Origin: a virus
Taxonomy: Duplodnaviria; Heunggongvirae; Uroviricota; Caudoviricetes
Reading direction: 5' to 3' (one strand)
Length of the DNA: 8,315 nt
IMG/VR virus record: IMGVR_UViG_3300045988_169852
Span: 1-8,315 of that record
In this document: one piece after another, positions 1 to 3,000 of the stretch
Position numbering within the stretch: the stretch's first letter is position 1
How the letters are laid out: the number at the start of each line of letters is the position of its first letter
Position numbers: made by a program

Positions 1-3000
1 CAATGAGCAACAATGTGGAACAACCACGAACAAGAGGCGAAAAAGCATACAGATTTATAAGTGGCTGATTTTTAATGTGTCACTGGTTTTTTATACACTA
101 GCGAATCACTCTTTAAAGAGCGAGAAAAAAGGCATGAAACAATATTTTATGCCTTTGTATTAACATGAATTTAAAAGATTTTATCCTGATTATTCCTGTT
201 TCTGTAAACCATACGACCTCAACATTTGCCAACTCTGAATCATCCTGACACAATCAGACACATCCCAACGCAATAGAACACGAAATAACTCTTTAAGAAA
301 CGAAAGGGGGCAATAGTGTTAAGCACTGATCGGTTTATACGTGAAAAAGAATGCGAAAAGCTAACAGGCCTTAGCCGCTCATGCCGCTACCGCCTGGAAA
401 AGGCCGGACAATTCCCATCACGTCGTAAACTTGGCGGTCGTTCCGTTGGCTGGTCTTTATCCGAGGTTCTGGCCTGGAAGGATAGCTGCAAGGCAGTTCA
501 TTAATCACGCTGGCGGCACACAGCCGCCACACATCAATCATCTGAACACAGAGCTATAACCATGAAGATTGAATATACGCCAGAACGTGGGCGGGGATTC
601 GTTCGCCCTGGTGAAACTGAAAAACAACAAAATTGGGGTTTTTCAGGAATAAAAAAAGCGATCCCGAAATGGAGCCGCCTTTCTGAACAATTAACCCGCT
701 GCGCCTTATGTGTATATGATCCCAAACATAAGCACGGGGATGATAGCCGCTATCAGGCTGGTGGGCAATGCAATCAGTCTGGTTCAGTTCGTTGCCATAC
801 CTGCAATGAGCGCTTTTCCCTGTACTCTTTAAGGAATTGCTCAAGGGCAAAAGCACATGGCGCGAATCTTTCTGATTCATGCTCTATCTTTCTGCGCCGT
901 CTTTTCCGTGCCGGTGATAATGTTTTGGTCAATTCTTTATCGGTCATTGTGTTGTCCTGCATAGCAATGCGCCGTAATACCTTACACCACGGCGCTGATG
1001 GTGATTACTCTGGTTCTTTGGCCTTGCGGCGCTGGCGATATTCAACTTCTCGTTTTAATGCCGCAGTAACAAATTGCCCCGTACTTTCGCCAGGCATTTT
1101 TACCGCCTCAACATTGTTCATAACTTCATGCGGAACCCTTGCCGCAACGGTTTGTGATTTTGCGTTTACTGCTTTTGTCGCCATGTGGTGTACCCCTCAT
1201 AAAAAACAAATGCAGTATGCAGGAAAAAAAATAAGTGTTCAACACTTGACGTGTTTAACACCTGGGTTTAAATTGGTGTTCAACACCTTGTTGGCGCAAG
1301 GTGCAGAAACGACGAAACCCGGCAGTGCGCTAACACTAACCGGGCTTCTAACCACCAACGATAGCGAAAGTATCGAGGTAGCTATGAGAAATCATACCAC
1401 ACACCCGCAAGGGCGGGACCCGCACAACCTGAATAAATACATCTGGCGTTTTATCGCCCTGAGCACGGCACAACCGCGCGTGATTACCATCGAGGCCACC
1501 AGCGAACAGGAAGCACGCCAGCAATCTCCGGCTGGCTGCGTGATGGTATTCGCTGCCCGTATTCGTCAGGGGTCACATCATGCGTAAAAACCGCTTGCAA
1601 AAAATTATCACGGGGCTGTATGCTTCCCCCGTCGCCCACATGGCGACCGGGTTTGACAGCCTGAATACATCTGGCGGACAGCCGCCCACATCCGATAAGC
1701 GGTTTTTTTGTGTCCGTAAACCTACCCATACCCGCATTATGGCGGGGCGTAACGGGGGAGCCTTTGTGCTCGCTGGTTTCCAGATGACCAGTCTGTCAAC
1801 CCTGTTACGTCTCGCCACCATGTTTGACAGCGTAGTAGCGAGACTCCTTAAAATTCATCTGGGAGCCTTTCACATGGCTGTATCCGCACGCCCTTACTTT
1901 GTCTGGCGCTTTATGCAGTGCCTGACAGACAGCATTGCAATATTCACCGTTACCGCTGCCACTGAGCGCGAAGCACGCGCACAGCTGCCGCACGCACATC
2001 TTATTTTTGTCGCCCGTATTCGTCAGGGGGTGTGCCATGCCTGACATGACCAATTACCAGTACCTGATTAATACGCATTTTAACTGTGAGCATGATATTG
2101 CTAAAAAGGTTTATTCCGCTGCGGATGGGGCTACTGACAATATATCAATGGCTGTTTCGTCAATTGGTAGCCTGATGTGGTATGCGTCAGAAAATAAGGA
2201 ATATGACGAAAAGGCCATGCGCATTGATATGGGTAATATCGGTTTGTTACTGGCAATGCTTGGACAGTTTGATATTTCGTTACGGTGCACCATTGAAAAT
2301 GCCACAGATGCATTAAATGCTATAAAGAAAGCGAATACTGATTTAAATCGGGGATAAATAATCATGAGAACATATTTATCTGGCTTGACTGCCAGCGGTT
2401 ATGCACACCCCCAAATTATCCCCGGCGCTATTTATCTGGATAAGAACGGTAACAGAGTAACGGTAAAAGAACTGATGTTTGACCGTGTGTATTTTATCCG
2501 TGATGGCTATTCATTTCTTAGTTCGCTGAACGTGGAGATCTTTATTAGCAGATTCAGGCGGGAAATCCCGCTTTCCAGAAATAACCATGTGTCATGTATG
2601 GATGTTGATAAAAAACTACAGGAACTAAAAAACATGATTGCCGCGTGGAGAGAGCAGAAATGAAAAAAGCGCCAAATTTAAAACACCAGCCACGTGACAA
2701 AATGACGGAAGTCATCATTTTTGCGGGTAGTGATGCGTGGGCACATGCGAAGCAGTGGCAGGAACAGGACGGGCGACTGGCTGGCGATAACGTGCCTCCT
2801 GTCTGGCTTGGAGAGCAACAACTTGCCGAACTGGATAAGCTGCAAATTGTGCCGGAAGGCCGAAAATCAGTACGCATATTCAGGGCCGGACATCTTGAGC
2901 CAGTAATGATCAAGGCGATTGGTCAGAAGCTGGCGGCGGCAGGCGTACAGGATGCAAATTTTTACCCTGATGGAATGCACGGTCAGGAGGTGGAGAACTG

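Follow-up and report, generated by a model that had tools for sequence, protein, structure and literature searches.

Does the Gram-negative branch of the PICIs have a counterpart to the master repressor (Stl or Rpr) that silences Gram-positive PICIs and that helper phages inactivate? AlpA is an activator in Gram-negative PICIs, induction of the island EcCICFT073 depends on it, and its overexpression alone leads to replication (PMC6092414); the authors of that work called a global repressor in such islands “unclear” and the difference in strategy “a mystery” (PMC6092414). The window analyzed here (the whole stretch of 8,315 nucleotides from IMG/VR record IMGVR_UViG_3300045988_169852) is an EcCICFT073-family PICI, i.e., an E. 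coli phage-satellite island, and it poses the question in concrete form. Between alpA (316–504, plus strand; PF05930), the gene of the known PICI activator, and the co-oriented early operon lies a candidate genetic switch, for which the original prediction proposed a small ribbon-helix-helix (RHH)-type repressor divergent from its operators. Evidence from the predicted fold and, above all, covariation over 12 specificity types support that proposal in a comparison of the window with about 35 related loci, which come from over 12 Enterobacterales genera.

The 59-aa Protein and Its Gene

The ylcI-like gene of the putative RHH repressor (1005–1184, minus strand) reads as a 59-aa ORF with an ATG start, and the strong ribosome-binding site expected for it is present as GAGGGG (1193–1198, minus strand), 8 nt upstream of the start codon. 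The gene had been described as missing from the ORF track. This holds for the track used in that prediction, which probably chose an overlapping 341-aa plus-strand ORF (562–1587) instead, but not for RefSeq/PGAP, which calls a YlcI/YnfO family protein here (WP_000201461.1, from an E. coli locus of 99% identity).

The long plus-strand frame could itself be the real gene, with the 59-aa ORF just its antisense shadow. It starts 58 nt past alpA, runs for 341 codons antisense to both orf62 and the repressor gene, crosses the operators and the leader, and ends as an Icd-like domain; in 22 of 25 loci no stop codon interrupts it over the operators, and parts of it are annotated by PGAP and in older records. 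Selection nevertheless fits the minus frame, whose codon position 2 is the most conserved across loci and whose amino-acid conservation (normalized BLOSUM) reaches 0.68 vs. 0.52 for the plus frame. The minus ORF also keeps its start, Shine-Dalgarno sequence and length across loci, has a predicted fold and is covered by a curated family model, whereas the plus-frame translation shows no protein conservation beyond the Icd-like domain among the related loci compared. For this reason we rejected the idea that the long ORF encodes a conserved protein, and the shadow reading seems to us highly improbable. The 59-aa ORF is taken as the gene in what follows.

Its product matches the NCBIfam model NF041551 (YlcI_YnfO_N) at 59.7 bits over residues 9–50 (curated cutoff 30; E 2e-16). 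The predicted layout—a strand at about residues 10–17, helix A at 19–28, a G32-E33-S34 turn and helix B at 35–56—is that of a putative RHH protein, and the residues invariant in the family (G32, E33, S34 and R16, the last followed by V17-P18) provide the G-x-S/T/N turn with which RHH proteins cap helix B, and strand residues that alternate between polar and hydrophobic ahead of a proline. In hhalign, R16-V17-P18 pairs with R13-W14-P15 of Arc. Neither Pfam (nothing significant, only a spurious Med10 match) nor a PDB profile search (nothing relevant, and no solved-structure relative by sequence) linked the protein to an RHH sequence family at significance; Foldseek against the PDB returned nothing significant, and relatives of the protein produced sub-threshold matches only, to PSK_trans_fac, RHH_1, HicB_lk and TacA1. 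The product is very probably an RHH DNA-binding protein of the YlcI/YnfO_N family.

The K-12 members of this family, YlcI (prophage DLP12) and YnfO (Qin), are of the DUF3950 type and have the N-terminal arm, strand and helix A in common with the 59-aa protein; helix B differs, with GESTGQF here vs. NFSAWV in the DUF3950 type. Pfam DUF3950 (PF13132) does not match the 59-aa protein and scores 72.8 bits for K-12 YlcI and 29.9 bits for the protein of a Klebsiella locus (L029), a DUF3950-type relative that shares the switch layout and has dyads of its own. In K-12, ylcI is part of a lambdoid prophage and has cos and nohD beside it, in place of alpA and an early operon. In 50,697 phage records, tblastn found a single match (39%), in a 16.5-kb “induced prophage” that resembles a satellite. 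Our literature search on YlcI, YnfO, DUF3950 or RHH proteins with PICIs found no functional study; one paper on cf-PICIs lists YlcI/YnfO as a “prophage-associated protein.”

Candidate Operators and Promoters

Three dyads of the form GTGTT-N-AACAC had been predicted at the −35, spacer and start of a rightward promoter, and all three are exact. The 11-bp word GTGTTNAACAC (GTGTT[C/T]AACAC) matches exactly at 1235–1245, 1251–1261 and 1276–1286, and the sole further site at up to one mismatch, GTGTTAAGCAC, lies at the alpA start codon. Chance predicts 0.24 matches, and four were reached in none of 200 shuffles; relaxing the search to two mismatches added no sites, at which level four matches are about what chance gives. 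We treated the site at the alpA start codon as chance.

The promoter scan found one promoter-like site in the intergenic region, the rightward early promoter PR (1246–1274, plus strand), with TTGACG (1246–1251), a 17-nt spacer and TAAATT (1269–1274), a 9/12 match. In nearly all related loci, the TTGA keeps this offset. It is the positions of these hexamers that make candidate operator O1 (GTGTTCAACAC, 1235–1245) abut the −35, place O2 (GTGTTTAACAC, 1251–1261) in the 5′ part of the spacer, and let O3 (GTGTTCAACAC, 1276–1286) begin 2 nt past the −10, over the expected start site. Measured from the repressor ATG, O2 sits at a fixed offset of 66 in all loci and O3 at 88–92 in nearly all (101 in locus L041), with an O2–O3 spacing of 22 to 25 bp among most loci and 34 bp in L041. 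O1 is specific to the cassette type of the source island, where it takes the place of an OL site found at offset 21 in other loci. It also overlaps the −35 of an inferred weak leftward promoter, PL (1214–1242, minus strand), read from the sequence as TTGAAC (reverse complement of 1237–1242, inside O1), 17 nt and CATACT (reverse complement of 1214–1219). This is an 8/12 match, under the threshold of the scanner; the equivalent −10, TATACT (CAGTATAC on the plus strand), recurs at this offset in most of the related loci. The regulator is thus divergent from its target operon, with sites at −35, spacer and +1, a layout kept in about 35 loci.

Downstream of the repressor gene lies orf62 (774–962, minus strand; phrog_21027, E 1.6e-15), which may be the second gene of the leftward unit. 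The two could be an antitoxin and its toxin, with dyads that merely autoregulate the pair. Searches of Pfam and NCBIfam gave no match for orf62, however, and none of Pfam, NCBIfam and phrog assigned it to a toxin family; various related loci with the switch have a different ORF in that position or none, and a conserved toxin gene was not encountered among them. Moreover, the divergent promoter, not that of the gene itself, carries two of the three sites. We consider a toxin–antitoxin pair improbable and return to a repressor that acts on PR.

Covariation and Mosaic Islands

Across the roughly 35 loci, the promoter and site offsets (21, 66, 88–92, with 101 for O3 in L041) are constant while the dyad word varies with residues 11–15 and the N-terminal arm of the protein. 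Among the 12 specificity types, QT[VLI]AA at residues 11–15 goes with GTGTTCAACAC, Q[SA]LK[SA] with GTGGGCCACAC, [KR]KLEA with GTGGCTGACAC, QK[VL]Q[AT] with GTGGAGTCCAC, KRFDV with GTGTCCGACAC, KKIDV with GTGTCAGACAC, QSVTA with GTGTAAGACAC, and QALRA with GTGTAGACCAC; N-terminal arms of the MTRD type accompany CTGG…CCAG outer bases. Loci that differ at residues 12/14 never share an operator among the 22 loci tabulated (0 cases). The prototype EcCICFT073, outside those 22, bears the same switch, and its operator word is that of loci L005 and L006 with A12 instead of S12. When Hamming distances among strand residues are compared with those among operators, a crude measure, the correlation is weak (Spearman 0.08; Mantel r 0.28, p 0.007). 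Since operator words are just one to four bases apart, exact types were used in place of distances. Covariation of adjacent DNA could also come from co-inheritance of a cassette rather than from recognition.

Mosaic islands bear on which protein reads the dyads. A natural swap separates the source island from L033: identity is 93–96% over 1287–1526 and 83–90% over 958–1077 but only 46–73% over 1078–1286, a stretch that comprises the N-terminal half of the repressor gene and the operators. Replicase, AlpA or an Icd-like protein could be imagined as the binder instead. The Icd-like ORFs are labeled “transcriptional repressor” by phrog_6196, and the TGTTCA within the dyads echoes part of the P4 type I iteron, a likeness that had led to the suggestion of primase autoregulation through a P4-alpha-like octamer. 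That suggestion fails: the P4-alpha octamer TGTTCACC is absent, the replicase (DUF927 with a Cch HTH) has its own iterons, TAACCCGCA, in a field elsewhere (4805–5122), and the operators do not track the replicase. AlpA is 100% and 98% identical to that of the source island in L035 and L036, which nonetheless have a KKLEA protein and GTGGCTGACAC; the L035 locus covers half of the replicase, which is 93% identical over that part, with different operators all the same. Different operators likewise accompany an Icd-like protein of 90% identity in L033 and an orf62 of 100% identity in L036 and L037. Conversely, L002 has a repressor and operators identical to those of the source island and an AlpA only 31% identical, and unrelated replicases occur in islands with the same operators. 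These comparisons exclude each of the four neighboring products (AlpA, Icd-like protein, orf62, replicase) as the partner of the dyads, and binding by the replicase, AlpA or the Icd-like protein is very hard to credit. Dyad specificity follows the repressor, not the neighboring genes.

The Early Operon

The target had been named the replication-operon promoter. A replicase does lie downstream, but the operon is not simply one of replication: under PR, a structured leader comes first, followed by an Icd-like ORF, a C4 module of the P1 immI type and only later DUF4222 and the DUF927 replicase. The leader (1284–1379, plus strand; MFE −34.1 kcal/mol, z −3.4) consists of a 5′ hairpin (1284–1303), a conserved, covarying hairpin (1314–1348) followed by CTTCTAACCAC, and a small hairpin (1354–1379). 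Compensatory changes occur in 10 of 12 leader hairpin pairs across 20 loci. A SymR match on its minus strand (33 bits vs. GA 61) was treated as chance. The Shine-Dalgarno GAGG (1375–1378, plus strand), in the region of the last hairpin, precedes the first early gene, which encodes an Icd-like protein of 67 aa (1384–1587, plus strand; NF033153, E 1.4e-19; phrog_6196).

Next comes a P1 immI-like RNA immunity module (1618–2044, plus strand), recognized by Rfam and NCBIfam matches. It comprises a1/b1 targets (1618–1667), a terminator (about 1680–1709), a C4 antisense RNA (1735–1822) and b2/a2 targets (1819–1867), the latter overlapping the Shine-Dalgarno sequence of a second Icd-like ORF (ATG 1875 to 2044, plus strand). 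The Rfam scores are 72.6 bits for C4 (RF01695; GA 45) and 46.8 bits for c4-a1b1 (RF03163; GA 46.7), NF033153 matches twice in the early region, and complementary arms I10, I14 and I18 are found in the C4 module. C4 RNA, a/b targets and an icd-type ORF are thus combined on one transcript. The promoter scan found no separate promoter for C4. At gathering score, C4 RNA is absent from the 20 other switch-bearing loci scanned, and we rejected it as a universal partner of the switch.

Proposed Mechanism

What is observed directly is the gene, the sites and where they lie, together with covariation and mosaicism. On this basis, the YlcI/YnfO_N RHH protein probably binds the dyads and blocks PR as the immunity or maintenance repressor of this EcCICFT073-family PICI. 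A dimer would read each 11-bp dyad (GTGTT-N-AACAC here) through its N-terminal arm and β-strand, with residues 12, 14 and 16 predicted to point toward the DNA by register with Arc. The insertion of a two-stranded sheet into the major groove, as expected of an RHH dimer, has indirect support in that strand residues covary with the core of the dyad. Occupation of O2 (spacer) and O3 (start site) would block RNA polymerase at PR, and O1, on the −35 of the protein's own weak PL, would allow negative autoregulation. When free, PR would drive the leader, the Icd-like gene and the C4 antisense-RNA module, and further on the genes for DUF4222 and the DUF927 replicase. The operators and the part of the repressor gene that encodes its N-terminal half would form a swappable specificity cassette, comparable to the imm regions of lambdoid phages. 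Points against this mechanism include the weakness of PL (8/12), the lack in the source island of the OL site present in most loci, and the variable O2–O3 spacing. Given that EcCICFT073 induction needs AlpA (PMC6092414), the repressor cannot be the sole control; with C4 downstream of PR, that promoter cannot be fully silent if the resident state needs C4, barring a C4 promoter of its own.

Those last considerations also favor a different role, in which the protein binds the dyads but acts transiently after induction (Arc- or Cro-like), or mainly tunes its own promoter, and the resident island is silent through the absence of AlpA, helped by C4 where present. The requirement for AlpA in EcCICFT073 induction and the replication triggered by AlpA overexpression alone (PMC6092414), the weak PL and the position of C4 downstream of PR all fit such a role. 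Yet the arrangement, a divergent gene with PR bearing two operators and PL one, is that of maintenance repressors such as P22 Mnt, the diversity of cassettes resembles the diversification of immunity groups, and C4 is missing from the 20 other loci scanned and is therefore not a general silencer. A transient role thus appears unlikely, though less so than the alternatives weighed above, and maintenance repression is our preferred reading.

More speculatively, the family may be the master repressor of Gram-negative PICIs, with at least a dozen heteroimmune cassettes, and the switch may be flipped by transcription without an antirepressor. AlpA-activated PalpA transcripts, translated through the stop-free plus frame antisense over the repressor gene and operators and on into the early operon, would bypass the repressed PR, and their convergent transcription would shut the repressor down. 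We offer this extension tentatively and think it rather doubtful as a whole.

Comparison With Known Switches

The immI region of P22 (the RHH repressors Mnt and Arc, with sar antisense RNA on Pant) is one point of comparison, but the 59-aa protein has no significant sequence homology to Arc or Mnt. Furthermore, the P22 immI operator is one 17–21-bp site bound by a tetramer rather than three separate 11-bp dyads, and the P22 operon carries ant, whereas the one here carries Icd-like, C4 and replication genes in a satellite, not a phage. The immI region of P1/P7 (C1-controlled P51, C4, icd, ant) resembles the locus in C4 with its a1/b1 targets, in the Icd-like ORFs and in a2 over the second Shine-Dalgarno sequence, and both would share the logic of a protein repressor at the promoter plus an RNA acting on the transcript; the repressor here is a putative RHH protein of the YlcI/YnfO_N family, not C1, and C4 is optional. 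In P4, with its CI RNA immunity, there is no protein repressor at PLE. The SaPI repressors Stl and Rpr are similar in that the repressor gene is divergent from the excision/replication operon near int and that many specificities exist among related islands. Stl and Rpr are, however, described as much larger proteins and are not known to be RHH. A further difference is that Gram-negative PICI induction needs AlpA (PMC6092414).

Distribution and Implications

Among 5,426 complete E. coli genomes, the cassette type of the source island occurs in 487 (about 9%), and two other types occur in 134 and 60. The switch gives Gram-negative islands, EcCICFT073 included, a candidate master repressor. If the protein represses PR, deletion could be aimed at one specific gene and mutation at a defined operator, and the immunity groups of satellites would be predictable from sequence. 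Repression of PR would likewise make these pairs a compact natural set of RHH proteins and operators from which to derive recognition rules, and would provide the first testable function for the y-gene family YlcI/YnfO.

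The Island and Its Candidate Repressor Gene

Over its first 2 kb the window shares 96% identity with an island of E. coli FORC_069 inserted beside an integrase gene, and positions 5840–8211 are 95% identical to EcCICFT073, the prototype Gram-negative phage-inducible chromosomal island (PICI); on these identities we place the window in the EcCICFT073 family of PICIs. The alpA gene (316–504; PF05930) lies upstream of the switch, and a DUF4222 gene (2364–2663), a DUF927/Cch-type replicase gene (2645–4783), an SSB gene and a capsid-like gene lie downstream. In four related loci (L003, L005, L007, and L018), the Rfam int-alpA RNA motif (RF02996) exceeds its gathering score ~2.5–3 kb downstream of the repressor gene; no such motif was detected in the window.

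The predicted 59-aa minus-strand ORF (1005–1184; MATKAVNAKSQTVAARVPHEVMNNVEAVKMPGESTGQFVTAALKREVEYRQRRKAKEPE) is present, with a Shine–Dalgarno sequence, GAGGGG, 8 nt 5′ of its ATG. Although absent from the original ORF track, it is already annotated in public records: RefSeq labels the product a “YlcI/YnfO family protein.” The protein passes NCBIfam NF041551 (59.7 bits; cutoff 30) and matches phrog_949, a family annotated without function; a Pfam search found no match. K-12 YlcI belongs to DUF3950, as does a Klebsiella relative (39% identical). Searching 1.84 billion representative proteins with a profile recovered only 81 clusters, and the literature searched contained no functional work on a protein of the YlcI/YnfO type. 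Lying 42 nt downstream of the repressor gene, orf62 (774–962, minus strand) matches phrog_21027 (E = 1.6e-15) but nothing in Pfam or NCBIfam, shows no clear Shine–Dalgarno sequence, and gives way to other small ORFs in related islands.

The suggested ribbon-helix-helix (RHH) fold is likely, not proven. The AF2 model (mean pLDDT 79.7; >90 at residues 21–50) has helix A (19–28), a G-E-S turn and helix B (35–56); DSSP assigns no strand to the N-terminal segment, and Foldseek and PDB sequence searches returned nothing informative. R16-V17-P18 aligns onto Arc R13-W14-P15 (hhalign) and, by analogy with Arc, residues 12, 14, and 16 would face DNA.

Putative Operators and Divergent Promoters

Three perfect GTGTT[C/T]AACAC dyads lie in the 199-nt gap between the repressor gene and the next plus-strand gene: O1 (1235–1245), O2 (1251–1261), and O3 (1276–1286). 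By chance, 0.24 matches are expected in the window, and the observed number was reached in 0 of 200 shuffles; allowing two mismatches revealed no extra dyad sites in the window. The sole sigma-70-like site of the gap, on the plus strand, is TTGACG (1246), 17 nt, TAAATT (1274). On this rightward promoter (PR), O1 is thus directly adjacent to the −35, O2 occupies the spacer and O3 lies over the start site, the arrangement originally described. Judged by position, candidate dimers at O2 and O3 would occlude PR. O1 also overlaps a weak putative leftward promoter, PL (minus strand; −35 TTGAAC, reverse complement of 1237–1242; 17 nt; −10 CATACT, reverse complement of 1214–1219), so it would autoregulate the repressor gene. 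A separate sequence at the alpA start codon (316–326), GTGTTAAGCAC, is one mismatch from the operator word and probably a chance occurrence.

Operator Sequence Follows the Small Protein

We compared 31 loci from a species-representative genome collection (upstream regions of homologues), 11 found by exact-protein look-ups, and EcCICFT073. Architecture is near constant: in nearly all loci a −35 hexamer starting TTGA lies at offset 60–65, counted from the repressor ATG; an 11-bp site directly follows it (offset 66), and a second falls just after the −10 (offset 88–92 in nearly all loci, 101 in L041). A third site is usual at offset 21, overlapping CAGTATAC, i.e., the −10 TATACT of the leftward promoter, where its location at the PL −10/+1 suggests that it would do the autoregulatory job in most relatives; it is absent in the window and its Edwardsiella twin, which have O1 at offset 50 instead.

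Twelve operator words were seen, each paired with one class of residues 11–15, and every class turns up in more than one genus with its word unchanged (e.g., [KR]KLEA with GTGGCTGACAC in Escherichia, Salmonella, Pectobacterium, and Xenorhabdus). Across 22 tabulated loci, no word was common to proteins differing at residues 12/14. EcCICFT073, added after that table, encodes a protein of the same family (C_RS30120; MATGTTNAKSQALKARVPH...), with GTGGGGGACAG at offset 21 and GTGGGCCACAC twice on TTGACG...TATAGT; its word GTGGGCCACAC is that of L005 and L006, with A12 vs. their S12 and K14 in all. In five cases residues 12/14 agree while the words differ, and each time the proteins have different N-terminal arms; in three of these, L027 compared with L009, L011, and L025, it is mostly the outer bases that change (GTG...CAC vs. 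CTG...CAG). The outer operator bases that do not vary fit the invariant N7, K9, S10, and R16.

Because the pattern could arise from co-inheritance by itself, we looked for mosaic islands. The window and L033 are 93–96% identical over the leader and Icd-like gene (1287–1526) and 83–90% over the repressor gene's 3′ half and the adjoining sequence (958–1077), but only 46–73% over 1078–1286, an interval that coincides exactly with the operators and the part of the gene encoding the N-terminal half (the “cassette”). Other candidate binders part company with the operators. AlpA is 100% (L035) or 98% (L036) identical to that of the window, yet both loci have a KKLEA protein and GTGGCTGACAC; conversely, L002 has identical repressor and operators with an AlpA only 31% identical. 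The orf62 product is 100% identical in L036 and L037, whose operators differ. The L035 replicase is 93% identical over the half covered by the locus, yet the word is GTGGCTGACAC, and unrelated replicases (DUF927, AAA_25, D5_N/DUF5906) accompany identical cassettes. The alternative of primase autoregulation through a P4-alpha-like octamer is thus rejected: the P4 octamer TGTTCACC is absent from the window and the replicase iterons (TAACCCGCA, at least 12 copies) lie elsewhere, at 4805–5122. That field, with dense TAACCCGCA and TGCGGGTTA in both orientations just downstream of the DUF927 replicase gene, is likely the replication origin. Of the elements compared, only the small protein's presumed reading head invariably accompanies the operators.

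In one E. coli island (L035), a second 59-aa Arc-like ORF (3185–3364, plus strand; VSTHKNERRGNPPFQFRLDPDLREKMEK...) stands in tandem with the YlcI-type switch, with its own ATGTGT...ACACAT palindromes and leader-hairpin copy and no significant Pfam match. K-12 ylcI (DLP12; L040 6252–6840) is divergent from nohD with a lambda-type cos, GGGCGGCGACCT, between them, a context unlike the satellite switch; a TTGACGTGG motif lies upstream of it.

The Early Operon under PR

PR had been described as the replication-operon promoter; the replicase is in the operon, but its content is broader. The leader (1281–1383) has strong secondary structure (z = −3.4). Across 20 loci its hairpin at 1314–1348 carries compensatory changes at 10 of the 12 pairs, and an invariant CTCTAACCAC-type motif comes after it (CTTCTAACCAC at 1346–1356 in the window); no Rfam family covers leader or hairpin. 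On the same strand follow an Icd-like ORF (1384–1587), a1/b1 targets (1618–1667), a terminator (about 1680–1709), a C4 antisense RNA (1735–1822; 72.6 bits), and a second Icd-like ORF (1875–2044) whose own Shine–Dalgarno sequence lies within the a2 target. The series represents RNA immunity of the P1 immI/P4 CI type. The immI-like module is complete over 1618–2044, the a2/b2 targets covering the Shine–Dalgarno sequence of the second Icd-like ORF, and a 154-aa ORF (1580–2044) is mostly read-through of the RNA genes. The C4 module is an add-on, because C4 at gathering score is absent in 20 other loci carrying the switch.

A Stop-Free Frame across the Switch

A plus-strand frame of 341 codons (562–1587) begins 58 nt after alpA and passes antisense to both orf62 and the repressor gene. 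It continues over the operators and the leader, and its final part is the Icd-like domain. Equivalents span 428 codons in EcCICFT073 (L045 6767–8053) and 317 in L033 (2098–3051, minus strand). The frame has no stop in the 165 intergenic nt in 22 of 25 non-redundant loci (the other two plus frames average 4.4 and 3.6 stops) and none in any of the 25 where it lies opposite the repressor gene, counts to be read knowing that loci share ancestry and that the antisense frame is intrinsically stop-poor. After synonymous recoding of the repressor genes, the probability of zero stops had a geometric mean of 0.24 per locus; 22 of 22 were observed stop-free. Codon-position differences (3338:1931:6395 in the repressor frame) and normalised BLOSUM (0.68 vs. 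0.52) indicate that it is still the repressor frame on which protein selection acts. The plus translation has no conservation outside the Icd-like domain across loci, so selection appears to act on the openness of this frame, not its sequence. PGAP labels 562–1009 an “Icd-like pseudogene,” and residues 49–84 of the EcCICFT073 ORF weakly match anti-repressor (Ant) PHROG families (E about 1e-4), a stretch that may be a Bro/Ant-type gene remnant.

The plus-strand ORFs of the window from 562 to 4783 are mostly chained through short overlaps. One speculative hypothesis fits the open frame and the published AlpA dependence: translated transcripts from the alpA promoter would read through, convergent to the repressor gene, and would enter the early operon despite repression of PR.

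Implications for PICI Regulation

Systems in which an RHH repressor has its operators on a divergent promoter are of a well-known kind. The literature searched has no description of this family, its assignment to Gram-negative PICIs or the diversity of its immunity cassettes: the cf-PICI paper nowhere mentions repression, and C4 and isrK RNAs are reported in these islands with no mention of a YlcI/YnfO-type protein (PMC10111431). In published work AlpA acts as an activator, switching on both its own promoter and an ORF3 fusion; the same authors called a global repressor in Gram-negative PICIs “unclear” and termed the difference from Gram-positive PICIs “a mystery” (Fillol-Salom et al., 2018; PMC6092414). 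For this island family, sequence and comparison across loci support the originally predicted reading of a divergent candidate repressor/operator switch.
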